Source: a virus. From it: a DNA stretch of 18,670 nt. Below are positions 1,782 through 16,447 of the stretch, piece after piece. The stretch is taken from the UHGV virus genome UHGV-1662908; one strand, 5' to 3'. Each line of letters opens with the position of its first letter. Position 1 is the first letter of the stretch. The notes beneath the pieces are model-generated. The model saw only the letters and a list, made by a program, of their open reading frames with translations, was not told where the DNA came from and searched no databases. The position numbers and the translations under genes are program-made.

Positions 1782-4327
1782 TCCTGCACTACACGCGAAA
1801 CGCAGATGGCGCTTTCGACCGCACAAAACACGTCGGGATGCCGATGGAGTTTGTCGTTAACCGTATCCCCGACGGCGTGCCGGTGCGCGTCTACCTCGGC
1901 GAGATTGGTGACGATACCGACGTAACTGACGACTTCGACGCGCTTAAAGACGAAGACGCGGTGTACCACATTATTGAGGGTGCTGGTGGTGGTATAGGTA
2001 ACGCTATTGGGAAGGTGTTTGGTTTTATCCTTAAGCCAATCGCTAAGTTGTTTGGTCTTAACCGGACACCTAATGCCGACTACACGGCGACTAACAATCA
2101 GACAACGTCACCGAACAACAGCCTTACCGACCGTTCCAACAAGCCGCGCCCTTACGAGCGCTCTTATGACATATGCGGGACTGTACAGACAATTCCTAAT
2201 GACCTGATGCAGACGTACAAGGCGTTCAACTCCACGGGCGCTTTGCTGGAGTATTCGTACTACGACGCAGGGCGCGGGCATCTGCATATTGAGGCCAATG
2301 GCGTCACAGAGGGTGACACCTTGATAAGCGACATCACGGGTTCCTCTGTTGCCGTGTATGCGCCGTATACTTCCCCTAACAACACCACATCCCCTCAACT
2401 ACAAATCGGCGACGTCATTGACCAGAAACTCTATGTGACATACTCCAATGATGACGTCGACGGCATTGTACTGAAAGCGCCAAACGACATCGGAGCTAAC
2501 CCAACCTCCGGCGGCACTGCCAAACGTATCTCAACCACCGGCTACATCTATGACCCGTCGGGCGACTCTGCTTTTTCTGAGTTTCTTAGTGTCGGTGATG
2601 TCGCGGTGCTGAGCAACTTTGACGTACGCGATGTCACTAACCTGAACGGCTCATTTGAGGTTTTATATGTCGACGACTTTGAGGTTCGGTTGTACGTCGG
2701 GAATATAGGTAACTGGGGCAATCTTAGTAATGGGCAGACTTACGCCCTGACAGAGCGTTCGGATACGTTTATAGGCCCGAGCAACACGTACGATGTGTCC
2801 CTGACCGACTGGTATTACATGGTGCGCGGAGAAGTTGACCGAGTGCTCGCCAACGTTGCTGGTCAGAACGGCCTCTACAAATACGATGGCGGCTATAACC
2901 GCACCAGCGTAACCGTAGAACTCCAGTACCAGATGATTGATTCCCGGCGCAACCCGTTGGGTGATATTTACACGGTACAGGCTACAATTACGGGCAACAA
3001 TACCGACTACGTCGGCACGTCTATCTACGGTCAACTGCCGACCGCGTCCCGTTTCCGCGCCCGCATGCGCCGTATAACGAATTTCGATAAGGACTATGAC
3101 GGTACAGTAAGCGACGAGATAACGTTCATCAACCTGTACGGGCAGTCCCTGGACACAACCCCACACTACGGCAACAGAACTACCGTACATTGCGCCCGTA
3201 AACAGACGCCACGTGCCGCAAGTATCGACAACCCGGAACTGCGCATGATCGCAACCGAGATGTGTTACAAATACCGGGGAAATGGGGTATTTGATACAGT
3301 AATGACGCCGAATACGCAGGCGGTACAATCGCTAATCAGACTGGCGCGTGACCCGGCGGTGGGCAATCTGGAACTCACAACGGCAAACATGGATAAGTTA
3401 CTATCCGTGCAGGAAGAAATTGAGTCCTATTTCGGAAGTGAATTGGCGGGGCAGTTCTGCTACACATTCGACGACTACGACACAACTATGCAGGACATCG
3501 TTCAGACTATAGCTGAAGCCGTGTTCTGTACCGCGTACCGTAAAGGCGCGGATATTATGCTGCGATTCGACCGCCCAGTCGCTGGGCCAGAGATGGTGTT
3601 CACCCACCGCAGCAAAACTACCGGGACGGAGAAATGGTCCCGCACGTTCAACGATTCGACAACCTACGATAGTCTGTCGTTCTCGTACATCGACCCGGAT
3701 ACTAACGTACAGGAAACGATTTATATCCCGGAAGAACTTGGGGTAAACACCGAAGAATACGAATCGAAGGGGGTGCGCAACTACCAGCAAGCGTACTGGC
3801 TTGCGTGGCGTCGCTACCAACGCAACGCGTTAAGTAAAGTTGTCGTAGAGTTCGAAGCTACCGAAGAGGGGGCACTCGCTACACCGGGCGGCGTAATCAG
3901 TGTGGTTAAAGGCTCGCGTATCGCGCCACAGGACGGCTATGTTGTTGCCGTTAATGGGCTTACGCTGACGCTGTCTCAACCTGTTACGTTTACTCCGGGG
4001 GATGACCACTCCATCATCCTCAAGAAGCGCGACGGCTCGGTGCAGAGTATCTCTGTTATCAAAGGAAGTCACGACCGTGAGGTGGTTATGCTCTCCGCGC
4101 CGGAGGAGGCAATCTACACAGGGAATAGTGCACTAAAAACTGAGTTTTCATTCGGCAACGAAGCAAGGCATAATGCTCAGAAGATAGTTGTTTCCTCAAT
4201 CGACCCGGGCGACGACCGCACGGTCAGGATTACTGGTTACAACTATGACGATGGATTCTATAAATACGACGGCGTCGCGCCATACGGCAGCGGTTTCTCC
4301 GACGGGTACAGCAACGGTTTTAATTAA
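1772..4327 (+). CDS. large tail-tip / host-specificity-like structural protein (851 aa in track; start uncertain)
   Basis: Long ORF 1772..4327 directly after the small tail proteins and before the tail fiber. Track start is a TTG overlapping the upstream stop; first ATGs are at about 1838 and 1844 (MPMEF). A Gly-rich hydrophobic stretch lies near the N-terminus (GGGIGNAIGKVFGFILKPIAKLFG). Confidence 0.6.
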   Translation: MAIILHYTRNADGAFDRTKHVGMPMEFVVNRIPDGVPVRVYLGEIGDDTDVTDDFDALKDEDAVYHIIEGAGGGIGNAIGKVFGFILKPIAKLFGLNRTPNADYTATNNQTTSPNNSLTDRSNKPRPYERSYDICGTVQTIPNDLMQTYKAFNSTGALLEYSYYDAGRGHLHIEANGVTEGDTLISDITGSSVAVYAPYTSPNNTTSPQLQIGDVIDQKLYVTYSNDDVDGIVLKAPNDIGANPTSGGTAKRISTTGYIYDPSGDSAFSEFLSVGDVAVLSNFDVRDVTNLNGSFEVLYVDDFEVRLYVGNIGNWGNLSNGQTYALTERSDTFIGPSNTYDVSLTDWYYMVRGEVDRVLANVAGQNGLYKYDGGYNRTSVTVELQYQMIDSRRNPLGDIYTVQATITGNNTDYVGTSIYGQLPTASRFRARMRRITNFDKDYDGTVSDEITFINLYGQSLDTTPHYGNRTTVHCARKQTPRAASIDNPELRMIATEMCYKYRGNGVFDTVMTPNTQAVQSLIRLARDPAVGNLELTTANMDKLLSVQEEIESYFGSELAGQFCYTFDDYDTTMQDIVQTIAEAVFCTAYRKGADIMLRFDRPVAGPEMVFTHRSKTTGTEKWSRTFNDSTTYDSLSFSYIDPDTNVQETIYIPEELGVNTEEYESKGVRNYQQAYWLAWRRYQRNALSKVVVEFEATEEGALATPGGVISVVKGSRIAPQDGYVVAVNGLTLTLSQPVTFTPGDDHSIILKKRDGSVQSISVIKGSHDREVVMLSAPEEAIYTGNSALKTEFSFGNEARHNAQKIVVSSIDPGDDRTVRITGYNYDDGFYKYDGVAPYGSGFSDGYSNGFN

Positions 4328-4339
4328 AGAGGACTCTAT

Positions 4340-7213
4340 ATGTCAAGCGGATGCGGTGACGTTTTAAGCCTGGCGGATTTACAGACCGCCAAGAAACACC
4401 AGATTTTTGAGGCAGAGGTCATTACCGGTAAATCCGGTGGGGTTGCTGGGGGTGCTGACATTGACGAAGCAACGAACGCTGTAACAGGGCAGGTGCAAAA
4501 AACATTACCAGCTGTTCTTGATGATATTGCGTTGAATGTAGTGCCTTTTAGCAAACAATATTCGGACCTTGCTGCCGCGCAGGCAGATATAGCTAATATC
4601 CCAGTAAATTCCTATACGTATATCAGAGATTCGTCTGGCAGCGCATTGGCGCTGGAATACCAGAACGTAGCCGGGGTCTTGACAGCCACAGGCCGAAAAA
4701 TGCCTTCACGGGCATCAATGGTCATTGGTTCTGTAGATTCGTGGGTTAATAACAATCTTTACTCATTTGATTCATTTTCATCGCCAAACGAAAACTTGGT
4801 ATCAATGAGCGTAGCCGCAGTAGATACGATTGCGTACCGAGAGGCCTACTCCGCTTTATTATCTACAGTTGCAGCGGGCGACATTATCACTGTCCGTTAT
4901 AGATACAGCGGAACCGGAGGCGCCCCAACCATTGGATTAAAAACATCGCTGAACGGCACATTTGTGAGTAATCAGCCAACGCTGACCTCTTCAAATGACT
5001 GGCAGGAAGTGCAGCTTACCGCTACCGCAGCTACCGCAACGCTCCTGGCTATCGGGGTGAACACAAGGCTTGCAACCACTGTTCAGTTATCGATTATCGC
5101 CTACGCATCGAAGAAAAATGCTATTACCACGGCAATTCTTAACTCACTGGATAGCATTTCCAGTTTAAATGGGAAGGTGCGTATTGGTTCTGTGGATTCG
5201 TGGGTTAATAATACCGGATATCCATTTTCCACATTTTCCCAGGTCAATAACAACCGCGTGAACTACGCTAATGCTTCAGGCGTATACTCTGAAATGTACG
5301 CCAACGCTTCCGTTCCTTCAGGCGAGAAGGTAACGCTCAGCTACTCGCTGGATATTACTTCAGGTCGTTTATTCGCTCGACTTGCCAACGGTAGCAACTG
5401 GACCAGCGACGAAGTCCAATTGACTAATGGTGATGCACGGCAGACTGTTATCCTGACAGCTACGGCAGACACTAAGCAGATTAAAATCTACTCAAAAGCA
5501 GAAGTTTCATCAGGGAGTATATTTGCAGAGGTAAACTTCGGACAGAAAAACTCACTGACCGAACAGATTGACGCGCTATATTCTTCAATCGCTTCAGCCA
5601 ATGCTGTTCTTGCTATTTTGTCACAAGATTCTACCTTCGACTCTTTCGTTAACAGTTCACCTTACACCTATACTCTTTCCGATGCCGGAACCGCGTATAA
5701 GCAATTGATGAACACAATCACCCCAGTATCTGGCGTTTCAACCGTCAAGATGATGTATAAAATTGCATCATCTAATGCGGCACTGAAGATTCAGAGTCGT
5801 AATGGTAATGCGTGGGGGGCAAATGAAAAGGCTCTCATTGCAGACGGTAATTATCATGAAGTGGACCTCGCATTAGCTTCGGGGCAGGTTTTCTCTGGGT
5901 GGGGTGTGTACTCAGCAGCAAAATCAGGTGGGTATCAAGCCGATGTGACGATGATTCCTGTTTCTGCCGATGGGGTATTTTTCACCCCAGCCACAGCTAT
6001 TTTGTACGGACTCATGACGTCCGCAGATTCACTCAACACCAGAGTTACCGCACTGGAAAACGGGCAGGTCACTAACCAGAATACTGACGTTATTTTCCCG
6101 GCATATTTTTATGCTGTAGATGGTCGTCCATTGCGTTTTTATGGTGCCAATATGGTCAGTGGTGCTCGCCCGTGGCGAAATAATACTGACGTTGTGCTGT
6201 CCAGTCATGGGTATGAGGGAAAGCCAGTATTACTTAAAAATGTTGTGCCTGACGCAACGATAATGCCGTCAGAAATCAACGGACCAACGCTGAACGTTAA
6301 TGCTCGTGCTGATGGTTCTGGGGATGTATTTCGTAAGAAAGCTGCGTTCACCAAACTGGCGGCGACTCAGACCGGTAACGTGAAAGTCGCTACTATTATG
6401 GACTCACTTGGTGAACGTTGCGTTCCTTGGTTGTACTTCGCCATCAATGCCACTGGTGCTGCTTACGTAGGTGCTGGTTCCCGAACCACTCGTGGTATAA
6501 CGGACGAGGGAGGTTACACTCTGCCAAATACACCGTCAGCAGGCATTCCTTTTGACGGTCGTGGTGGCTGGACGACGTTCGACTACATCGGGAAGACGCA
6601 GAAGACGAACTTCTCGCAGCCATTCCTGCGTGACGCTACGAGCACAGATTTCTCTGCTTATCCGCAGTATTGCTTCGATAAAGCCTACTCCGGGCAGAGC
6701 TATGCAGATAACCCTAATCTGGAGGGGTATCACATTTTTGATGTGACGGCATGGATGGCAGCGGCTGGCGTGAGCGCATCAGACAAACTGGTTGTGGTTA
6801 TCCAACTGGGATACAATGATTTGTATTATAACTACACCCCGCAGCAGACCGCCGACGCGCAGGAGTTCATGATTGCGAAATTCCGTGAGAAAATAGCGGA
6901 TTCCCGTTTCGTTATTTCTCACCAGGCATTTGGCTGGTCGGGAGCAAGTGCACCCAAGAATTGGCCTGACTTTGCAAAATGGATAACGGAGAAGGTCAGG
7001 AAGTTCGACAATCGCCTTGGCGAGAAAATAATTGTGGCGCCTGCATGGGCGCAGATGAGCTACAAATACGGAATGAACGAAACTATCACAACAACCAGTG
7101 ATACTGGTGTCCAGACTGTATCGTTACCTGATGACGTCCATCCCGGAGAGCTTGGCGGGGCGCAGTGGGGTGACGCTCTGGTTGCTCCTGTTCTGGCGGC
7201 GTGGAGTTTATAA
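4340..7213 (+). CDS. tail fiber / tailspike protein with tandem internal repeat domains and C-terminal SGNH (GDSL-like) esterase domain
   Basis: ORF track 4340..7213; ATG preceded by AAAGAGGA RBS. Repeated segments GSVDSWVNN(N/T)..(F)S.FS at aa ~129 and ~282, with a weaker third copy at ~aa 430. C-terminal ~280 aa carry SGNH-like blocks: IMDSLGE (block I-like), LGYND (block III GxND), DDVHPGE (block V DxxH). Confidence 0.7.
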   Translation: MSSGCGDVLSLADLQTAKKHQIFEAEVITGKSGGVAGGADIDEATNAVTGQVQKTLPAVLDDIALNVVPFSKQYSDLAAAQADIANIPVNSYTYIRDSSGSALALEYQNVAGVLTATGRKMPSRASMVIGSVDSWVNNNLYSFDSFSSPNENLVSMSVAAVDTIAYREAYSALLSTVAAGDIITVRYRYSGTGGAPTIGLKTSLNGTFVSNQPTLTSSNDWQEVQLTATAATATLLAIGVNTRLATTVQLSIIAYASKKNAITTAILNSLDSISSLNGKVRIGSVDSWVNNTGYPFSTFSQVNNNRVNYANASGVYSEMYANASVPSGEKVTLSYSLDITSGRLFARLANGSNWTSDEVQLTNGDARQTVILTATADTKQIKIYSKAEVSSGSIFAEVNFGQKNSLTEQIDALYSSIASANAVLAILSQDSTFDSFVNSSPYTYTLSDAGTAYKQLMNTITPVSGVSTVKMMYKIASSNAALKIQSRNGNAWGANEKALIADGNYHEVDLALASGQVFSGWGVYSAAKSGGYQADVTMIPVSADGVFFTPATAILYGLMTSADSLNTRVTALENGQVTNQNTDVIFPAYFYAVDGRPLRFYGANMVSGARPWRNNTDVVLSSHGYEGKPVLLKNVVPDATIMPSEINGPTLNVNARADGSGDVFRKKAAFTKLAATQTGNVKVATIMDSLGERCVPWLYFAINATGAAYVGAGSRTTRGITDEGGYTLPNTPSAGIPFDGRGGWTTFDYIGKTQKTNFSQPFLRDATSTDFSAYPQYCFDKAYSGQSYADNPNLEGYHIFDVTAWMAAAGVSASDKLVVVIQLGYNDLYYNYTPQQTADAQEFMIAKFREKIADSRFVISHQAFGWSGASAPKNWPDFAKWITEKVRKFDNRLGEKIIVAPAWAQMSYKYGMNETITTTSDTGVQTVSLPDDVHPGELGGAQWGDALVAPVLAAWSL
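4724..4753 (+). repeat. direct repeat copy 1 inside tail fiber gene (~29 bp, near-identical to copy at ~5183)
   Basis: Encodes IGSVDSWVNN; read as attggttctgtagattcgtgggttaataa versus attggttctgtggattcgtgggttaataa in copy 2 (about 28/29 identical). Coordinates derived from codon positions. Confidence 0.6.
5183..5212 (+). repeat. direct repeat copy 2 inside tail fiber gene
   Basis: Second occurrence of the same ~29-bp segment, ~459 bp downstream of copy 1, encoding the same IGSVDSWVNN peptide. Confidence 0.6.
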
Positions 7214-8980: not shown

Positions 8981-9656
8981 GATTAGCCTCGTAAACTGCT
9001 TTTGCGAGCCCACGCGGAGTAAGGCTGCGGATTGTTTTTGTTCTGGCGCTCTTTCCGCCGAGTTTAGCCCAACCAGGGTTATCTCCGCTGCCCACGGCAA
9101 CCTCGGCAACGTTAGGCATAACAAACCCATTTCCGGCCCACAGGCACGTCTTTTTAACATATGCATCTCGCGCCGGGATAACATCCGGGAACATTGGATG
9201 CGTGTCGTCTTCGGGTAAATAGCCGCCGTATTCGTACGGATTGAACGCGTAGTCAGGCTTACGCCATAAAGACGAAAGAACGCTAACCGGGTTCTCAATC
9301 ATATACGGTACGTTGTACTTTTTAGCCAGACGCGCAGCCACTTTGCATGTAATCACGGCCTCTACCTGAAACGTTGGGTTCCTTCTCCGCTTCGTTTCGA
9401 AATGGGCCGCGCCGCTAACGGCTAAATCTGTGCATGGGGGGAACGCGAAAATAATATCCGGCGCAACGTCGAAGTCGAATTTATTATCAATCCACGCGTT
9501 TATATAGTGGATATTTTCATGTTCAACTTTTGCACCCAATCGAGCGTAGTCTCCGTGGTCGGCGCCGTCGTAGTTGAAACAATAGCAAGTATGGCCCGCT
9601 TCCGCCCACGGTTGGGCCATAATGCCCGAACCGTCAAACAATGACCAGACAATCAT
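8973..9656 (-). CDS. SAM-dependent DNA (cytosine-5)-methyltransferase-like protein (227 aa, short)
   Basis: ORF track 8973..9656. Motif I-like SLFDGSG (FxGxG), motif IV-like FPPC with candidate catalytic Cys, motif VI-like IENP. Shorter than typical C5-MTases, so the target-recognition region may be minimal or the function different. Confidence 0.5.
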   Translation of the reverse strand: MIVWSLFDGSGIMAQPWAEAGHTCYCFNYDGADHGDYARLGAKVEHENIHYINAWIDNKFDFDVAPDIIFAFPPCTDLAVSGAAHFETKRRRNPTFQVEAVITCKVAARLAKKYNVPYMIENPVSVLSSLWRKPDYAFNPYEYGGYLPEDDTHPMFPDVIPARDAYVKKTCLWAGNGFVMPNVAEVAVGSGDNPGWAKLGGKSARTKTIRSLTPRGLAKAVYEANHV

Positions 9657-9844
9657 TTCAGCACCAGCACAAGCTCTTTACGCCCGAACGCCGTAACGTT
9701 ACCCGTTACATCTTCGATAACCAGTTTACCGTTCGACTCGACGAACACAGTATCGACGGCAACAGGCCGACGGGTCTTAACGTTGAAAATCATGTCGCCC
9801 GGTACGATGTCACGTGCTGGTTTGCGGTCATATTCGTGTTTCAT
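9653..9844 (-). CDS. hypothetical protein (63 aa)
   Basis: ORF track 9653..9844; first gene downstream of promoter A, with AAGGA RBS about 9 nt upstream of the ATG; stop overlaps the start of the methyltransferase-like gene. Confidence 0.45.
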   Translation of the reverse strand: MKHEYDRKPARDIVPGDMIFNVKTRRPVAVDTVFVESNGKLVIEDVTGNVTAFGRKELVLVLK

Positions 9845-9874: not shown

Positions 9875-10159
9875 TTAACTATAATAGTTCGCTATTAGGT
9901 CGTCAACCTGTTTGAACGAGCCAACGACAAAAACATTTGCACCACGTTTACACATCCGCGCATGCTCGCGTAACTGGTGTGGGTCTGGCTTCGTGTTTTC
10001 GTCTTTCTTAACCTCGACGAACCAGATGATGCCGCCGGGGAGAATTACCAGCAGGTCGGGAGCGCCGGAGCGCCCCTCGTAGGAAAGTTTACGAACGAGG
10101 CCACCGAGGGCCTCGAATCGTTCTTTTGCGTATTTCTGAATCTTGCCCTCCGGGGTCAT
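9875..10159 (-). CDS. VRR-NUC domain nuclease (PD-(D/E)xK fold)
   Basis: ORF track 9875..10174 starts at a TTG; the in-frame ATG (MTPEGKIQ...) at 10159 overlaps the upstream small ORF stop (ATGA). Motif GAPDLLVILPGGIIWFVEVKK matches the VRR-NUC D..(E)VK signature. Confidence 0.65.
   Translation of the reverse strand: MTPEGKIQKYAKERFEALGGLVRKLSYEGRSGAPDLLVILPGGIIWFVEVKKDENTKPDPHQLREHARMCKRGANVFVVGSFKQVDDLIANYYS
9876..9906 (-). promoter_or_regulatory. sigma70-like promoter A (minus strand): TTGACG - 17 bp - TATAGT
   Basis: Minus-strand reading gttgacgacctaatagcgaactattatagtt; member of a 3-copy family (see 14349 and 17013). About 30-60 nt upstream of the 63-aa gene start. Coordinates approximate. 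Confidence 0.5.
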
Positions 10160-10308
10160 GAGCGCAGAACCCAAGTTATAAACGCCCCGCCTAGAACGGC
10201 AACACCGACAAACTTAAAGAACAGGCCATAACAGAACATCGCAGCTATTCCCGCACCGAGTAACAGTGCGAGCATGGTTACTATCGTCCAAAATACAAAC
10301 ATTGTCAT
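10156..10308 (-). CDS. small hydrophobic membrane peptide (~50 aa)
   Basis: Not in track. My translation MTMFVFWTIVTMLALLLGAGIAAMFCYGLFFKFVGVAVLGGAFITWVLRS; ATGA overlaps at both ends place it exactly in frame between neighbours. Confidence 0.4.
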   Translation of the reverse strand: MTMFVFWTIVTMLALLLGAGIAAMFCYGLFFKFVGVAVLGGAFITWVLRS

Positions 10309-10394
10309 AATACGCACCCCTCTCGTTTTGTATGCTCAATCCCGCAGCGCGGGCAGATTCGACAGTCTTCTTCGTATAACCCGTAAATTTTCAT
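10305..10394 (-). CDS. tiny Cys-rich peptide (~29 aa, CxxCxxC...C)
   Basis: Not in track. My translation MKIYGLYEEDCRICPRCGIEHTKREGCVL; ATGA overlaps with both flanking small ORFs. Confidence 0.3.
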   Translation of the reverse strand: MKIYGLYEEDCRICPRCGIEHTKREGCVL

Positions 10395-10522
10395 TCCAGC
10401 ACCCACAGATAAATTGCGATGAACATACCCAATACGGTGACAATCATGCCGTATTGACCCTCGTGACAGTAGACACCGGCGGCGAATCCCGCCAGTAATA
10501 CGATAATCAGTTTACTTAGCAT
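10391..10522 (-). CDS. small hydrophobic membrane peptide (~43 aa)
   Basis: Not in track. My translation MLSKLIIVLLAGFAAGVYCHEGQYGMIVTVLGMFIAIYLWVLE; its ATG overlaps the last codons of the DNA polymerase gene and its stop overlaps the next ATG. Confidence 0.4.
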   Translation of the reverse strand: MLSKLIIVLLAGFAAGVYCHEGQYGMIVTVLGMFIAIYLWVLE

Positions 10523-13500
10523 AACGTTTCATCTCCGCACCTTCCGCTACAAGCGGGAACCCCTCAGCCCACTCAGGCAGCGAACACATTAATTTTTCCA
10601 GTTCAGCCACCGTGTAATCAGGCGTATCTGGAGTTTCACACACCAGTTCATCGTGTACCGAAAGCACGATGGGATACCCGCCACCCTCAACATTAATCAT
10701 CGCATATGCTAGTAAATCACGGCACAACGCCTGAACAATGTTTTCACAGGCTTTGCCGCCGTGGGTGTACAGGGTAGTCCATTGGCGGGTTAACTGGTTT
10801 TCACCTTGGTACTTGATTCGCACATTCGTGTTTACCCGTCCGTCTTCGTCTGTTTCTTTTGTCACGCTAACGCCGATCCCCGGATACGAGAGGATACGGC
10901 CTGACGGCAACTCCATACACAACCACCAACCGGGAACCTTCCTACCTGATGAATCGGTTTCTACTGTTCTCCAGATTCGGATAGCGCGCTCGCCATTCTT
11001 GCGCAAGTGTGCTCCCGCCCAAAATTCACGACCAGGATTGCGCACAGCGGCTAAAATTCCGTCTTTAAGGTCCCGCCAGAACGCTACTGTTTCCGGGTGT
11101 GACTCGCGCCACATACGCTTGATCGCGTCACATGTGCGCCACACTTTCTTGTCCAGAATATACGATGGTCTGTCGTCCTTTTCACCTGGATGCGGTGGCC
11201 GCTTTGCTTCCTGGATGCGTGCCCACTCGTACCCGCGTGCGGTAGCGGCCCATATGTGGCCCGGGAATGTACCGTCCATTGTTTTTGCCATCTCAATAAG
11301 GTCAAGACCTAAGTTTTTAGCGAACGTAACGAACGCTCCGACGCCTCCCTCGTAGCCGAGGCCAAGCTCGCAGTTATGCGCCACAAGAAAGCCAGAGTCT
11401 GAGGCTATAAGAAAACGGTTGCCGTCTTCCACATCAATCAGGTCGTACACCGGCTCGCAGTAGGTTAATTTCCCGCTCAAGTTCAGCAATGCGGGCAACG
11501 GCTGCATCATACTTTCGTTGAAGCTCGGGTATTTGCCGTCTGTTTCGGCAGTTTTCAGAACGGCTGACAAACCGAATGTTTCCAGGTTCGTAGTTACCGT
11601 CTGTGTCGATTCTATCCATTTCGAGGTTCGGGTCATCCCAGCTTTCCAGAGTTTGAACATATCTAAGAAAAGACCTTTTATCAGTCCTCCACTGGTCGAA
11701 TACCGTGATGCCTCTTGCCCCATAGTTTTTATAACCCTTATCCCTGGGGCTTGTTGTTCGCGTGATAGCCGCGGACAGCCGGTTGAGTAATCGCGTTCTG
11801 TGCGCATCATCCGGCATTGCGTCTTCGTAGCAGAAATACTGTTTACGATATTTTTTTGTTGCTTCAAGGGCGCAGCGGTTGCATTGAGTGGTTTTACCCG
11901 CTCTGACGTTGTCATAATAGACCCGCCCCGGCATCCCCCCGCAATCACATTGGACGAGTAGTTGTCTTTGGCCTTGTCGTTTTGGTAACTCGCGCAGGAT
12001 AACCAAGCGTCCATACCTCTCTCCAGGGCGAGGCCCATCATATATCTGTTTGAAGCGAGTTGCTTTGCCTGCTTCCAGGAATGCGCCAAGATTTTGTGGT
12101 CTTCGGTCATTAGCACCCCGTCCACATTTATTACCGGTTTCCACCCCATAAGGTGCGCGCCTTTTGTATTCACCCATTTTTCACCGCTCCATACTTTATC
12201 TGTTGATGTAACCGCCATAATATCCTTAAATCCGCCATCGGTCAAAACTTGGGTATGACGGTGAAGGCACGCTTTACCAATCTGGCGCAAGTCTTTACGT
12301 TCTTTCTTAATGTCGTCTGGGTCCATGCCAAACATCTTACCTGCGGTTACGCAATAAATATCCAGCCCGGCGCGGAACGTATCTAGCGCGGTTTCTTCGC
12401 CTGCAAGCCACGCAAGCCCTCGGCCCTCAACGTTAGAATAATCGGCAACAACAAACTTATGTCCTGCTTCCGGTATGATGCAGCTACGCACCGTCGATGC
12501 CGTTAATTTAGCGACATCAAAACGGCGGTGCGCGCGGCCCTTAAGTAACGCTGAAATGCCTTTATCCAGTTCATCATCGTGATAGTACCCGCGCGCGAGG
12601 TTCTGCGGTTGGAAGCCTTTACCCGCCCATCGCAGAGTGCGTTTTGCCCCGCCGTACTGCAAGCAACCGCGGCGTCGGTCGTCAGAAGAGCGGCCCAACA
12701 GCAGTGGGTTATATTTCGTTGATGCGGTGGACGCGGCCCCGAGGCGCATTTCTATAATCATGCGAGCATCGTCGGGTAAATCATCGTCTGCCAGCAGGTC
12801 ATTCAGTGTCGACTTCTGTGCGTTATGGATGCGGTGCGCGGGTGCGAGTTCACGCAGAATCGGAAGGAAGTCTTTACCAGTAAGCGAGCCGCCGTATTTT
12901 CGTTGGGCTTCTTCCTGTAACTGTGCCTTGTGCTTCTCCACGGCTTCAATCGCGGCTTCCGCCAGTGCGACGTCAACCTTAAACCCGCGGTCATTGATTA
13001 ACTGGTCCAGCTCCAGTACACGGTCCTCGAACTCGGAGTTACCCCAACGCGGCAGTTTATGGAAGACTTCACGCATCGCGGTGATGTCGCTCACGGCGTA
13101 CTTGATGAACAGCGCCCACTCGTCAGGGTGTGTTTCTGCGGTGTATCGACGGATTTTGTAGTTCTTCGGCGTCGGTTTAGAGAAACGCTGAATCAGCGCC
13201 TTGCCGCGTTTGTCTTTTGCATTGTCCGCCGATACGCCCAGCACTTCGCACAGCGCATCAAGTGACCCAGGCAGCGCGTGACGAAACGCTCGAATCATAG
13301 TGTCGATGGTATTTCTCGGTTTGATATCCACACCCCAGCAGTGCTTCATAACTAGCCTGTCGAACATTAAAAAGTTATGGCCTACAATTCTCATACGCCC
13401 GCGCATAACATTACGTAGCGCAACGCGTAGGCTTATTGGCATTACTGGTTCGGAAGTGCAATCCCATACTTCTACAGGCCCATCATCAACGGCGTATGTA

Positions 13501-13607
13501 CATATTATAATCTCAGTTGTTGCGTGTTCCGCGTATGCGTATGACCCTACTTTCTTTAGGTCAGCTTCAGAGAATGTTTCGGTATCAAGATACAATAAAT
13601 TAGCCAT
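10512..13607 (-). CDS. family A DNA polymerase with N-terminal 3'-5' exonuclease domain, interrupted by an intein (precursor 1031 aa)
   Basis: ORF track 10512..13607. Exo motifs YLDTETFS, GHNFLMFD, YAVSDI; polymerase motif A VVADYSNVEGRG; motif B split as RQIGKA / CELGLGYEGG; motif C VLSVHDELV. Confidence 0.9.
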   Translation of the reverse strand: MANLLYLDTETFSEADLKKVGSYAYAEHATTEIIICTYAVDDGPVEVWDCTSEPVMPISLRVALRNVMRGRMRIVGHNFLMFDRLVMKHCWGVDIKPRNTIDTMIRAFRHALPGSLDALCEVLGVSADNAKDKRGKALIQRFSKPTPKNYKIRRYTAETHPDEWALFIKYAVSDITAMREVFHKLPRWGNSEFEDRVLELDQLINDRGFKVDVALAEAAIEAVEKHKAQLQEEAQRKYGGSLTGKDFLPILRELAPAHRIHNAQKSTLNDLLADDDLPDDARMIIEMRLGAASTASTKYNPLLLGRSSDDRRRGCLQYGGAKRTLRWAGKGFQPQNLARGYYHDDELDKGISALLKGRAHRRFDVAKLTASTVRSCIIPEAGHKFVVADYSNVEGRGLAWLAGEETALDTFRAGLDIYCVTAGKMFGMDPDDIKKERKDLRQIGKACLHRHTQVLTDGGFKDIMAVTSTDKVWSGEKWVNTKGAHLMGWKPVINVDGVLMTEDHKILAHSWKQAKQLASNRYMMGLALERGMDAWLSCASYQNDKAKDNYSSNVIAGGCRGGSIMTTSERVKPLNATAAPLKQQKNIVNSISATKTQCRMMRTERDYSTGCPRLSREQQAPGIRVIKTMGQEASRYSTSGGLIKGLFLDMFKLWKAGMTRTSKWIESTQTVTTNLETFGLSAVLKTAETDGKYPSFNESMMQPLPALLNLSGKLTYCEPVYDLIDVEDGNRFLIASDSGFLVAHNCELGLGYEGGVGAFVTFAKNLGLDLIEMAKTMDGTFPGHIWAATARGYEWARIQEAKRPPHPGEKDDRPSYILDKKVWRTCDAIKRMWRESHPETVAFWRDLKDGILAAVRNPGREFWAGAHLRKNGERAIRIWRTVETDSSGRKVPGWWLCMELPSGRILSYPGIGVSVTKETDEDGRVNTNVRIKYQGENQLTRQWTTLYTHGGKACENIVQALCRDLLAYAMINVEGGGYPIVLSVHDELVCETPDTPDYTVAELEKLMCSLPEWAEGFPLVAEGAEMKRYAK
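11373..12269 (-). mobile_element. intein (299 codons) inserted in motif B of the DNA polymerase
   Basis: Boundaries computed from track coordinates: Cys447 (CLHRHTQVLTDGGF, block A) to Asn745 (VYDLIDVEDGNRFLIASDSGFLVAHN, blocks F/G), followed by +1 Cys; block B TEDHKILA at aa ~501-508. Confidence 0.75.
11434..12177 (-). CDS. HNH homing-endonuclease-like ORF lying inside the intein but in a different reading frame from the polymerase/intein frame
   Basis: ORF track 11434..12177 (247 aa); frame differs from the polymerase ORF ((13607-12177) mod 3 = 2). Contains GRLVIL...CDCGG...QCNRC and GYKNYGARGITVFDQW...MDRIDTDGNYEPGNIRFVSRSENCRNR, typical of phage HNH endonucleases. Recognisable part starts ~aa 50; the first ~50 codons overlap intein blocks A/B. 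Confidence 0.6.
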   Translation of the reverse strand: MGEYKRRAPYGVETGNKCGRGANDRRPQNLGAFLEAGKATRFKQIYDGPRPGERYGRLVILRELPKRQGQRQLLVQCDCGGMPGRVYYDNVRAGKTTQCNRCALEATKKYRKQYFCYEDAMPDDAHRTRLLNRLSAAITRTTSPRDKGYKNYGARGITVFDQWRTDKRSFLRYVQTLESWDDPNLEMDRIDTDGNYEPGNIRFVSRSENCRNRRQIPELQRKYDAAVARIAELEREINLLRAGVRPD

Positions 13608-14382: not shown

Positions 14383-15684
14383 TTATTCTAAATCTTCTTC
14401 ACTAACCTGATTCCACTCAGGCCGTTTGTCGTCTGCCGTTGCGACGCATGGCGCGCCTGGCTTACGAGTAACTTTCGTTTCCAGTTCGGCCCACATCCTG
14501 GCATACGCGCCTTTTAACACTTTTTCCGCTTCCGTTGGTGACATAACAGATTTCTTTGTTAGCAAATCCATGTCTACGTTATGGCGCGCTGCTAGTTCTT
14601 CGACCCATTTTTCATCACTCCAGCTACGATTACCCGGACGACCTTCAACCAGCTTATACCCCGGCACTTTCTTACCGGAATGCAAAGCGGCGGCCATAGC
14701 TTTCTCAACCTTGTCGATGTGCTGGCGCAACAACGGCAACTTCTCGTACTCAGCTACGAGTTGCTCTGGTGTCAGTTCCAGTGCAAAGTCGTCCTCCAGT
14801 TCTTCTGCCAGTACTGCGTTAACCGTCTTTGTACGCACGGCGCATTGTTCAGAGAACCGACACCACTGGCAGCCATCGACCGACGGCCTGAAGTCCGACG
14901 CTTTCAGGTTCTTCTTGCCGCGGAAATATGCATCAAGCGCCAACAGTGCACGTTTCCGTGCGAACTTAGCGAACAGTTCCAGACCTTCAACCGAGATGTC
15001 CCACTCCGACGCCCCACCAGCGTACGGTTGGAAGATTACCAGACGAACAGTTGTTATGTTATAACGTCTCTTGAGACGGCGATAAACACCGAGAGCGTAA
15101 AGCATAAGCTGTTTGTTTTCTTTCGCTTCGACACGATGTCGTCCTGTTTTCAGGTCGCCAATAATGAGCATGTGCTCGTCGGTGTTTGCCATCTCCTGTA
15201 CGGCAACAAGGTCAGAAGTTCCGAATGTCTGTAGTTCTTCTTGCCGTCCGTTAGGGCTATGAATGTAGCCAGGATGCAATACCTCAGTAAGATTGACGCA
15301 CATTTCCAGCTTGGCGTAAGTAGCCACGTCGATAATAGCTTTGCAGTAATCGGTGTACTTACGCACCTGCTCAATCATGTCAGCCGTAATCAGTACCGCG
15401 CCTTTCATCGGGCTGATTAGCGCCTTAATCTGGCCTTTGCCTTCATCCAGCACGTAAGCGCCAACTTCACGCCCTAACGGCAATGCAGTGCCACGGATAT
15501 AGGCGTTTAGATGGACCTCCGCTATGGTGTGCATGGCTGTGCCTAATACCGCAGCTTTACCGGACGTGTTAGGAATATCTTTCTCACAGGCCAGTGATGC
15601 AGCACAGCTTAGCCACTTTTTAGCGCCTGACGGTGACAGTAAGGCGTGCACATCGTTATTGCCGCCACGTTCTTTAAGAATCAT
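14383..15684 (-). CDS. PD-(D/E)xK nuclease of the DUF2800 / Cas4-RecB-like type (433 aa)
   Basis: ORF track 14383..15684. N-terminal HALLSPSGAKKWLSCAAS; IIGDLKTG...QLMLYALG matches a D..K...Q..Y nuclease motif; one N-terminal Cys plus a C-terminal CQWCRFSEQC cluster is consistent with a Cas4-like Fe-S site. Confidence 0.6.
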   Translation of the reverse strand: MILKERGGNNDVHALLSPSGAKKWLSCAASLACEKDIPNTSGKAAVLGTAMHTIAEVHLNAYIRGTALPLGREVGAYVLDEGKGQIKALISPMKGAVLITADMIEQVRKYTDYCKAIIDVATYAKLEMCVNLTEVLHPGYIHSPNGRQEELQTFGTSDLVAVQEMANTDEHMLIIGDLKTGRHRVEAKENKQLMLYALGVYRRLKRRYNITTVRLVIFQPYAGGASEWDISVEGLELFAKFARKRALLALDAYFRGKKNLKASDFRPSVDGCQWCRFSEQCAVRTKTVNAVLAEELEDDFALELTPEQLVAEYEKLPLLRQHIDKVEKAMAAALHSGKKVPGYKLVEGRPGNRSWSDEKWVEELAARHNVDMDLLTKKSVMSPTEAEKVLKGAYARMWAELETKVTRKPGAPCVATADDKRPEWNQVSEEDLE

Positions 15685-16178
15685 TTCTCAGCTCCGTTAA
15701 CTGTAAACCCATATTTAATCTCGGCTTGCCTACGAGCCTTAGCCGCGTTCTCTAACTTATCGTAAGCCCCTAAATAAATCGGCCTGCCGTCTACATAAAT
15801 TCTAGCGACCCACTTACCGTAGCGTTTATGAAACCCAACACCTTTAACCCCTGAAGTATTGTCGGTCCGTATGTTTGTGCCGTGTGCGATACTTCCCCGA
15901 CGCATTTTTATAAGATTTTCTATTCTGTTATCAGTTCTATCTTTATTTTTATGACGAATTACTTCCCCGGGCGCTATCACCCCGTTAAACATCTCCCAAA
16001 CTACGTGGTGGATAAGTTTAGTAGTCCCGTTAAAACGTAGTATTTTAAATTCACTCCCGTCGTTGTCCTCCCTCGTACTGCCAGCTTCTTGCCCTATTTT
16101 TACAGATTTTGACGGACTTATTTTCCAAAATAATTTACCGGTATCAGGGTCGTAGTCAAAAACTTCATGCCAGTTCAT
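15681..16178 (-). CDS. free-standing HNH homing endonuclease with C-terminal AP2-like DNA-binding domain
   Basis: ORF track 15681..16193; likely start is the ATG (MNWHEV) at 16178, overlapping the upstream stop (ATGA). HNH motif HHVVWEMFNG...IRHKNKDRTDNRIENL; AP2-like SGVKGVGFHKRYGKWVARIYVDGRPIYLGAYDKLENAAKARRQAEIKYG. Confidence 0.7.
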   Translation of the reverse strand: MNWHEVFDYDPDTGKLFWKISPSKSVKIGQEAGSTREDNDGSEFKILRFNGTTKLIHHVVWEMFNGVIAPGEVIRHKNKDRTDNRIENLIKMRRGSIAHGTNIRTDNTSGVKGVGFHKRYGKWVARIYVDGRPIYLGAYDKLENAAKARRQAEIKYGFTVNGAEK

Positions 16179-16447
16179 ACCCTGCTCTCCCACTGGTCAA
16201 TTAAATGTCGTGTCTTATGTTCGCAGTGCATAGCCCAGCTATACATCGACTCGAAGACATAAAAGTCAGGCTTGACGAACGTCGTGCGCTTAATCTGAGA
16301 CACGTGACGGCCTATATCTTTAGGCCATGGTACTTTGCCTAAGTACGCCATCTCTTCCATCTGGTGAGCACCGGACGGCGCACGTAACAGCCATAGCGCC
16401 TCTGTGGTATCCCGCCTGTCTACGGCGCGGTAGAGTTGGTAAATCAT
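16175..16447 (-). CDS. hypothetical protein (90 aa)
   Basis: ORF track 16175..16447; GAGGG RBS ~8 nt upstream of the ATG; stop overlaps the HNH-AP2 start. Confidence 0.5.
   Translation of the reverse strand: MIYQLYRAVDRRDTTEALWLLRAPSGAHQMEEMAYLGKVPWPKDIGRHVSQIKRTTFVKPDFYVFESMYSWAMHCEHKTRHLIDQWESRV

Follow-up and report, generated by a model that had tools for sequence, protein, structure and literature searches.

Three small coupled genes, probably cargo of a variable slot, between the DNA polymerase and VRR-NUC genes of a Guernseyvirinae phage

In an 18,670-nt stretch of the virus genome UHGV-1662908 (the window, by which we mean the whole of the DNA analysed), the minus-strand gap between a DNA polymerase gene and a VRR-NUC-type nuclease gene is tiled by three tiny ORFs, A, B and C, as read from the sequence and the six-frame ORF list (Table 1). 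Are these chance reading frames or genes and, if genes, what might such small products do between two replication genes? The explanation that we consider likely is that they are real coupled genes in a variable cargo slot, A and C encoding putative membrane accessories and B a putative metal-binding peptide.

Table 1. Features in and around the polymerase to VRR-NUC interval (window coordinates)
Feature	Position	Strand	Remarks
DNA polymerase A gene	10512..13607	-	1031 aa, intein-containing; upstream anchor of the chain
Polymerase stop codon	10512..10514	-	
GGAG Shine-Dalgarno for A	10533..10536	-	in polymerase 3' end, 10 nt before ATG
ORF A	10391..10522	-	43 aa, MLSKLIIVLLAGFAAGVYCHEGQYGMIVTVLGMFIAIYLWVLE
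ORF B	10305..10394	-	29 aa from ATG, MKIYGLYEEDCRICPRCGIEHTKREGCVL
GAGGGG Shine-Dalgarno	10317..10322	-	within B's last codons
ATGA following GAGGGG	10305..10308	-	
ORF C	10156..10308	-	50 aa from ATG, MTMFVFWTIVTMLALLLGAGIAAMFCYGLFFKFVGVAVLGGAFITWVLRS
VRR-NUC-type nuclease gene	9875..10159	-	94 aa from ATG 10159; downstream anchor
Antisense ORF	10274..10498	+	74 aa

The upstream anchor was identified by its Pfam DNA_pol_A and 3'-5' exonuclease domains and by the DNA polymerase label of its relatives. The downstream anchor matches the endonuclease family phrog_93 (9e-32) and has relatives labelled VRR-NUC or Holliday junction resolvase; its match to Pfam VRR_NUC (E = 0.0037) is below the cut-off. 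A, B and C share the orientation of both anchors, with replication genes on either side. The window belongs to a Guernseyvirinae phage with 93% nucleotide identity to Escherichia phage fFiEco03, and by sequence the host phage is Kagunavirus/Jerseyvirus-like, of the E. coli/Salmonella group. GenBank records of relatives already list orthologues of all three as hypothetical proteins: FE3_040, FE3_039 and FE3_038 of fFiEco03 have the same order, overlaps and neighbours, and we see no substantive difference between such proteins, or their PHROG families, and ours. B is left unannotated in several GenBank records, and that of fBC-Eco01 skips it. Profile matches assign the three to families without assigned function, A to phrog_10404 (positions 1–43 of 43, E = 3.1e-28), B to phrog_38225 (residues 1–28 to profile positions 5–32 of 36, E = 4.1e-19) and C to phrog_14925 (positions 1–50 of 50, E = 5.3e-34). 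Outside the subfamily no homologues of A, B or C were found; word-indexed searches, which covered 5.8 billion proteins, brought up only members of the same phage group, at least 73% identical and on phage-sized contigs (the query for B was a 41-codon in-frame extension). Pfam and NCBIfam yielded nothing for the three beyond hydrophobic matches such as EMC6 and PufX, noise below the threshold, and no PADLOC-DB defence/exclusion profile matched A, B or C at E ≤ 1.

The original prediction held that frames interlocking so precisely between two anchored genes would be real genes rather than random ORFs. Chance tiling of the gap is itself unlikely, yet not negligible: 113 of 20,000 simulated gaps (0.6%) were filled by three or fewer ORFs, in first-order Markov sequences and under a lenient junction rule. 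We nonetheless judge A, B and C to be real, selected protein-coding genes, each under purifying selection in its own frame, because the comparative evidence is decisive, with intact copies and low dN/dS in the called frames only. No internal stop occurred in any of 47 copies of A, 54 of B or 25 of C, and one relative that starts B with GTG retains the overlap as GTGA. In the called frames dN/dS was 0.21 for A, 0.13 for B and 0.18 for C, beside 0.10 for the polymerase C-terminus and 0.15 for VRR-NUC, and 0.77–2.8 off-frame. The antisense ORF, which served as a control, is interrupted by in-frame stop codons in 27 of 48 relatives. That A, B and C are chance ORFs within a non-coding spacer, a view that could draw on the simulated tiling rate, is thus already refuted by the full-length PHROG matches, the frame-specific selection in copies that are all intact, and the decay of the antisense control; we leave it practically no probability. 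The earlier expectation of real genes, conserved in related phages, was upheld.

Six-frame re-translation also bore out the three continuous minus-strand ORFs that had been proposed, at the lengths in Table 1. They had been described as joined to each other and to both neighbours by overlapping start and stop codons of the ATGA type. The overlaps are all there, and are ATGA at A/B, B/C and C/VRR-NUC, but the polymerase/A junction is instead an 11-nt overlap (ATGCTAAGTAA). Over all the architectures found in relatives, junctions are of ATGA, GTGA, TGATG, TAATG or 11-nt overlap form, that is, overlapping or abutting throughout. Such stop/start overlap is likewise a mark of translationally coupled phage operon genes (ATGA-type). 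The claim of tight coupling holds to the extent that the interlocking overlaps are confirmed and are conserved across relatives; from the gene overlap we infer that the interlocking reflects translational coupling. No excess of promoters or terminators was found between polymerase and VRR-NUC, and an Rfam scan of the whole window found no RNA family.

Shine-Dalgarno strength differs along the chain. The GGAG ahead of A, conserved in relatives, gives an anti-SD duplex of –6.6 kcal/mol, the GAGGGG within B gives the strongest of the chain (–8.4 kcal/mol), and VRR-NUC's own is weak (–3.1 kcal/mol). GAGGGG and the ATGA after it form a conserved junction that invariably carries the start of the following gene, regardless of its identity: depending on the relative, C, X, a TM peptide of 23–25 aa, an HNH endonuclease or VRR-NUC. 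Any gene inserted here would have to keep the coupling so that VRR-NUC, with its weak SD, is still made.

The gap contents vary widely, with 13 architectures in 50 non-redundant relatives. The presence of A, B or C does not depend on that of the others: of about 447 related phage records, 224, 445 and 121 have them, respectively, and the trio is neither obligate nor supported as the special unit that it had seemed. On this distribution B appears as a core gene of the subfamily, nearly universal and the constant element of the slot, and A and C as accessory genes, individually present or absent among near-identical phages. Elsewhere the slot holds other small TM peptides, a soluble protein of 63–64 aa, or HNH endonucleases; in distant relatives polymerase and VRR-NUC overlap directly by 4 nt, which we take as the ancestral junction, and recurrent cargo there includes TM peptides of 30–37 aa. 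Small membrane peptides had been thought unusual in such a replication operon, a view that these other TM peptides in the same slot do not support. A 116-nt deletion fuses A(1–7) in frame to B(4–29), so that B stays translated without A. Content is also mosaic: one relative (L029) stands at 79% in the polymerase C-terminus and 98% in C, another (L015) at 96% in the polymerase and 88% in C. Taken from these comparisons, the polymerase/VRR-NUC junction is best described as a general insertion slot, a hypervariable cargo site. It resembles moron-like accessory slots, in which small cargo is likewise gained and lost at a fixed place between two conserved genes. Classical morons bring their own promoter and terminator, whereas A, B and C have neither and plug into an existing coupling chain.

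A and C are, as predicted, strongly hydrophobic (GRAVY 1.52 and 1.77). A has two hydrophobic segments, over which 11-residue Kyte-Doolittle windows reach 2.0–2.9, separated by a conserved polar loop, Y18-x-H-x-G-Q-Y-G25. In C such windows run at 1.3–2.6 along the full length, and AF2 predicts a continuous helix over residues 2–49 (48 residues, pLDDT 90), a single long helix that is compatible with either a hairpin or a single span. Both peptides thus have the hydrophobic helical segments of bilayer-spanning length expected of membrane micro-proteins. We take A and C to be hydrophobic helical micro-peptides, with membrane insertion and topology suggested by hydropathy.

B is different in kind: classed as soluble (GRAVY –0.38), it carries the CxxCxxC...C pattern noted earlier, as C11-x2-C14-x2-C17-x9-C27, with C14 and C17 in a CPRCG (CPxCG) knuckle. 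Among 50 copies, C14 and C27 are invariant and C17 nearly so; C11 is R or F in five, H21 is Q or Y in two, and the two changes never fall in the same copy. All 50 variants thus keep at least four of C11, C14, C17, H21 and C27, which says no more than that no copy has two substitutions, and the putative fourth metal ligand is ambiguous between C11 and H21. AF2 models B as a beta-hairpin with the knuckle at the predicted tip, at low confidence (pLDDT 63), and a Foldseek search of the PDB from this low-confidence model gave only matches of E ≥ 5.5. A sequence-profile search of the PDB gave motif-only, sub-threshold matches to zinc-ribbon knuckles (E ≥ 0.15). When the B profile was run with HMMER against all 1.84 billion representatives, two family members came back, along with two repetitive Cys-rich proteins that match the knuckle only, and no Rosetta-stone fusion appeared. 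We suggest that B may bind a metal ion, probably Zn.

Known Cys/His folds fit B poorly. It shares the exact CPRCG with zinc-ribbon or rubredoxin-type knuckles (ribosomal protein S27ae, the rubredoxin-like site of 3-hydroxyanthranilate dioxygenase, RpoM), and the TPA label of one metagenomic B homologue names 3-hydroxyanthranilate dioxygenase. But those folds have two CxxC knuckles where B has one canonical knuckle, its remaining candidate ligands being single residues (C27 with H21 or C11), and the proteins that carry them are far larger than the 29 aa of B; on the knuckle count B does not qualify as a zinc-ribbon or rubredoxin-like domain. A retroviral-type CCHC zinc knuckle (C-X2-C-X4-H-X4-C) was rejected on the actual spacing, C14-X2-C17-X3-H21-X5-C27, and a 4Fe-4S ferredoxin motif (CxxCxxCxxxCP) because the fourth Cys lies nine residues past the third, with no CP, and C11 varies in 5 of 50 copies. 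The B frame is open for at least 48 codons and assemblies contain 72-aa A/B fusion proteins, which raised the possibility of programmed frameshifting from A into B. No two of the five fusions change frame at the same place, a pattern that fits random indels or assembly errors, and we rejected this reading too.

What, then, might the products do? Two roles at the membrane seem to us tentative candidates. In the one, A and/or C would lodge in the inner membrane of the infected cell and keep later-arriving related phages from injecting their DNA, as T4 Imm does. Products of T4 early genes do mediate exclusion, and Sp, like Imm a small early product acting at the envelope, is a soluble protein of the periplasm (PMC7677548). 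Both A and C are small, hydrophobic, dispensable and encoded in a replication operon, and they vary among co-circulating close relatives in the pattern expected of genes for inter-phage competition, a role that would suit their patchiness. A and C nevertheless have no homology to Imm or Sp, none of the three has a sequence or family link to known exclusion proteins, B is left unexplained, and nothing separates exclusion from other membrane-targeted roles. In the other candidate role, to which we give the same low weight, A and/or C would be host-takeover effectors that either depolarise the membrane or bind and inhibit a host protein of the envelope or of cell division. The comparison here is with Gp11 of the staphylococcal phage PhiNM1, an early protein of 53 aa with a predicted double TM that inhibits MurG and DivIC (PMC11237401), which A and C match in size (~50 aa), strong hydrophobicity and location among non-structural genes; the conserved YxHxGQYG loop of A also suggests a specific partner. 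Homology to Gp11 is not expected, the host phylum is a different one, and A and C are dispensable in many relatives: if takeover were important, close relatives lacking the gene would hardly make up half to three quarters of the total. The patchy occurrence of A and C, and their dispensability, are compatible with an exclusion or host-interference role, which misfits B, a soluble and nearly universal peptide.

Other readings have less in their favor. In phi29, p1 and p16.7 anchor the replisome to the membrane, and the position of A, B and C between, and coupled to, the polymerase and nuclease genes could point to peptides that tether this machinery; it is improbable, as many otherwise near-identical phages replicate without A and C, and distant relatives have nothing between polymerase and VRR-NUC. 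The peptides might even be irrelevant, with only the act of translation mattering as ribosomes are carried from polymerase to VRR-NUC. Such a relay would explain why every junction of every architecture overlaps or abuts and would suit the weak SD of VRR-NUC in the window, but we find it very hard to credit: dN/dS of 0.13–0.21 is selection on the amino-acid sequence itself, specific residues are invariant over 68–93 cluster representatives, and in many relatives, which lack A and C, VRR-NUC is coupled straight to B or to the polymerase. We attach scarcely any probability to a lysis role (holin, pinholin or antiholin). A and C are indeed small and hydrophobic with one or two TM segments, but they are shorter than typical holins and end in ...WVLE (A) and ...WVLRS (C), without a charged, hydrophilic C-terminal tail, and their neighbours are polymerase and nuclease rather than an endolysin; on these grounds holin identity was rejected. 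The 'holin protein' label at a megablast match, Salmonella phage SGP007, is that of another ORF, 63 aa long and further downstream, in a poorly annotated record that also labels a methylase gene portal. In the close relative fBC-Eco01 the holins, endolysin and spanins are located elsewhere (PMC9825357). Type I toxin-like peptides (Hok, TisB, Ldr class) were likewise rejected, with no Rfam antisense RNA in the window and no Pfam or NCBIfam match.

Under the explanation that we favor, of coupled genes in a variable cargo slot, A and C would enter the inner membrane of the infected host as dispensable accessory factors acting on a membrane process, perhaps keeping out the DNA of superinfecting phage or inhibiting a host protein of the envelope or of cell division. 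B would bind a metal ion, probably Zn, and act on a protein of the replication module or on nucleic acid. A bolder version, which we think doubtful, would see in B a metal-binding micro-subunit, 29 residues long and not described before, of the machinery for replication and recombination in Guernseyvirinae, a partner of polymerase or VRR-NUC. The B gene would serve at the same time as a socket (SD plus ATGA) into which exchangeable cargo plugs, and A and C would form an uncharacterised class of micro-peptides for phage-phage competition or host-membrane interference.

As a discovery the locus carries little weight, its products being orthologues of annotated hypothetical proteins and small accessory genes being routine in phage operons. 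It does show that frame-specific selection can validate ORFs down to 29 codons, and it identifies a conserved plug-in junction for cargo exchange between polymerase and nuclease genes. In a phage group widely used in biocontrol of E. coli K1 and Salmonella, the nearly universal B and the variable A and C are tractable candidates for functional work.

Megablast placed the region in the Guernseyvirinae, among Kagunavirus/Jerseyvirus phages, which infect E. coli and Salmonella, with Escherichia phage vB_EcoS_fFiEco03 as top match (93% identity). The minus-strand surroundings of the three tiny ORFs, A, B and C, form a replication module, in which an AAA protein, HNH endonuclease, DUF2800/PD-(D/E)XK nuclease, Enc34-type SSB and DNA polymerase A precede them and VRR-NUC, a 63-aa ORF, a methylase-like gene and a SNF2 helicase follow. 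Minus-strand reading over 9900..10800 and an all-ORF listing reproduced the originally predicted anatomy almost exactly. The mechanical listing placed the starts of B, C and VRR-NUC further upstream, at GTG or TTG codons; the ATG codons used here are those annotated and conserved in relatives. Overlap of the ATGA type, proposed for every link, holds at A/B, B/C and C/VRR-NUC; the polymerase and A do overlap, but not as ATGA, since the polymerase stop codon ends 11 nt downstream of A's ATG (ATGCTAAGTAA). A and C are hydrophobic as described (GRAVY 1.52 and 1.77), and B, which is hydrophilic, carries the reported cysteine pattern as C11-x2-C14-x2-C17-x9-C27. No promoter or terminator excess was detected between polymerase and VRR-NUC, nor any Rfam family within the window.

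Features of the polymerase–VRR-NUC slot and its surroundings. Positions are those of the window, except that L numbers denote loci of relatives (IMG/VR or GenBank) in their own coordinates.
Feature	Coordinates	Strand	Size	Remark
Large protein	4340..7213	plus	957 aa	tail-fibre or tailspike size
ORF just downstream of VRR-NUC	9653..9844	minus	63 aa	phrog_4879, E=4e-46
ORF C	10156..10308	minus	50 aa	counted from ATG
ORF B	10305..10394	minus	29 aa	counted from ATG
Open frame of B	10308..10451		at least 48 codons	upstream of B's stop
Antisense ORF	10274..10498	plus	74 aa	
ORF A	10391..10522	minus	43 aa	
DNA polymerase	10512..13607	minus	1031 aa	
Polymerase insert	11385..12266	minus	294 aa	residues 448-741
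HNH_3 + AP2-domain protein	15684..16193	minus	170 aa	homing-endonuclease type
A::B fusion, L016-L021 and L026	~2443..2553		116-nt deletion	
X, L006	2657..2851		63-64 aa	also L002, L005, L009, L024, L028, L036, L047, L050
Single-TM peptide, L007	2657..2728		23-25 aa	at C position
Single-TM peptide, L011 and L051	2657..2734		23-25 aa	at C position
HNH gene, L010	2450..2965			
HNH gene, L031	2531..3226			
HNH gene, L022 and L025	2657..3154			
HNH gene, L004 and L046 (phage Jersey)	843..974 / 2648..2779			

Tiling by itself is suggestive, not decisive, because three or fewer ORFs sufficed to tile 113 of 20,000 simulated gaps (0.6%; first-order Markov sequences, both end junctions forced, lenient junction rule). 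Coding status was judged on 80 IMG/VR loci around homologues of the polymerase C-terminus plus four GenBank loci, in which A, B, C and VRR-NUC were placed by tblastn. Pooled Nei-Gojobori dN/dS on unique sequences, in the called frame, was 0.21 for A (47 copies), 0.13 for B (54) and 0.18 for C (25), compared with 0.10 for the polymerase C-terminus and 0.15 for VRR-NUC (54 copies each), while the two other same-strand frames gave 0.77-2.8. Not one of these copies of A, B or C contained an internal stop; of 48 relatives, 27 carried in-frame stops in the antisense ORF. In relative L012, B begins with GTG, and the overlap is retained as GTGA. Judged by these substitution patterns, A, B and C are protein-coding genes under purifying selection, which bears out the original prediction that the ORFs are real and, with their overlaps, probably coupled genes; such selection at the peptide level rules out that the ORFs serve as mere ribosome relays.

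By sequence comparison the three are orthologues of proteins already annotated as hypothetical, with counterparts in fFiEco03, fBC-Eco01, SE479 and Jersey and end-to-end matches to phrog_10404, phrog_38225 and phrog_14925, families with no assigned function. The annotation of a number of deposited genomes omits B, among them fBC-Eco01, K1ind2, SS3e and several RefSeq Salmonella phages with 'none' listed at the match; these records still carry its intact sequence. Family, defence-system and curated models gave zero matches to A, B or C, and searches of 5.8 billion proteins and 1.84 billion representatives matched the same phage group only; the three are thus lineage-restricted ORFans.

Conservation of the frames among relatives proved real and unequal: by tblastn against 50,697 phage records, about 447 of which have the region at all, B was found in 445, A in 224 and C in 121, A being absent from about half of the related records. 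Escherichia-named records had A in 103 of 103 and C in 61, and the roughly 325 Salmonella-named records had A in 106 and C in 50. Fifty non-redundant gap sequences displayed 13 architectures, including A-B-C (16), A-B (11), A-B-X-C (6) and A-B-X (3), X being a 63-64-aa soluble Cys-containing protein; A-B followed by a 23-25-aa single-TM peptide (3), by a 165-aa HNH endonuclease (2) or, in Jersey, by a decayed HNH remnant (1); HNH between polymerase and A (2); and an in-frame A(1-7)::B(4-29) fusion without (4) or with C (2). Set against the polymerase, the slot is a mosaic: the polymerase C-terminus is 79% identical in L029, where C is 98%, and the polymerase is 96% in L015, where C is 88%. This distribution marks A, B and C as slot contents, not a trio.

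The fusion arises by a 116-nt deletion that sets A codons 1-7 in frame with B codon 4 onward (MLSKLII|YYFREEDCRICPRCG...), so that the Cys core of B is read from A's start and Shine-Dalgarno and A is lost. Five further 68-72-aa proteins from Logan/ENA assemblies (P0001-P0005) run from A's N-terminus into B's frame, switching at five different positions; most likely these are indels or assembly errors, and the long open stretch of B's frame upstream of its stop explains why they were called as fusions. X (...DMPEWEFIMVMGDGFFSDVCAGCTHKGVYYSEHDIYQAYFLRNPDAEPLL, function unassigned) sits between B and C or VRR-NUC and starts at the same B-terminal ATGA. The single-TM peptides are unrelated (MITIIAVLVALLLGAAIFSRIIG; MTMLTFIMVIVAVFLGVAVLCKVTD), and the slot repeatedly holds hydrophobic micro-peptides differing in sequence. 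HNH homing-endonuclease genes enter at polymerase/A or after B, the latter reduced in Jersey to a 43-aa N-terminal remnant, and endonuclease traffic may drive the mosaicism.

In all architectures the gene after B, whether C, X, a short TM peptide, HNH endonuclease or VRR-NUC itself, begins exactly at the B-terminal ATGA, and post-cargo junctions likewise overlap (ATGA, GTGA, TGATG or TAATG). The strongest Shine-Dalgarno of the chain lies inside B's last codons (...cgaGAGGGGtgcgtattATGA); its duplex energy is -8.4 kcal/mol, versus -6.6 for A, -3.7 for B and -3.1 for VRR-NUC. Precise interlocking would be the outcome of gene insertion into a translationally coupled pair, the surviving insertions presumably being only those that pass ribosomes on to VRR-NUC. 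Among distant relatives (L055-L084; polymerase about 47% identical), many contigs have a 4-nt polymerase/VRR-NUC overlap or 1-nt spacing, and others hold unrelated cargo, namely methyltransferase-like genes, 63-65-aa soluble proteins and hydrophobic peptides (37 aa in L065, 30 aa in L075); polymerase|VRR-NUC is therefore an old, presumably coupled junction, recurrently taking small cargo.

B contains an exact CPRCG knuckle, around which AF2 drew a low-confidence beta-hairpin (pLDDT 63). In a PDB profile search the sole matches were to the knuckle and below threshold (S27ae, RpoM and the rubredoxin-like site of 3-hydroxyanthranilate dioxygenase; E >= 0.15), Foldseek found nothing, and the spacing fits neither CCHC knuckles nor the ferredoxin motif. 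In 50 copies C14 and C27 never vary; one copy has Y in place of C17, five have R or F in place of C11, and two have Q or Y in place of H21. This conservation makes C14/C17/C27 plus H21 or C11 a plausible candidate metal site. B is the conserved core element; it probably binds metal and would work within the replication module.

A has hydrophobic segments at about residues 2-18 and 25-42, separated by polar Y18-C-H-E-G-Q-Y-G25; Y18, Y24 and G12 are the same in all 68 cluster representatives and H20, G22, Q23 and G25 in nearly all, a pattern that fits a putative helical hairpin with a functional loop. C is hydrophobic along its entire length, its sole charges being K32 and R49, and AF2 (93 sequences) modelled a single helix over residues 2-49 (pLDDT 90); as this predicted helix exceeds simple-span length, a hairpin or a tilted or kinked helix would be alternatives. 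A holin role is unlikely, because both peptides lack a charged C-terminal tail and in a close relative holins, endolysin and spanins are encoded elsewhere (PMC9825357). For A and C, anchoring of the replisome is likewise unlikely, because near-identical phages lack them. A and C are best read as accessory micro-proteins of the membrane that the phage can dispense with. They may keep out competing phages, or they may target a protein of the host envelope in the way of the 53-aa double-TM PhiNM1 Gp11 (PMC11237401).

Elsewhere in the window, the conserved 63-aa ORF after VRR-NUC has no assigned function; the label 'holin' given to its orthologue in a single GenBank record (SGP007) has no visible support. 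The replication module also encodes the HNH_3/AP2 protein. The polymerase insert starts CLHRH... and ends ...LVAHN before C742; it is present in L005, L016, L017, L022, L026 and L027, and most relatives lack it, their flanks joining seamlessly. It looks like an intein, relatives being annotated 'intein-containing DNA polymerase precursor', with no Pfam intein match at E <= 0.001. The 957-aa protein ends in a GDSL lipase/esterase-like domain (weak Pfam scores) that could be a receptor-modifying domain of O-antigen or capsule deacetylase type.

Slots that take up small cargo genes are ordinary in phage genomes, and the value of the finding lies mainly in the near-universal B and the plug-in junction.
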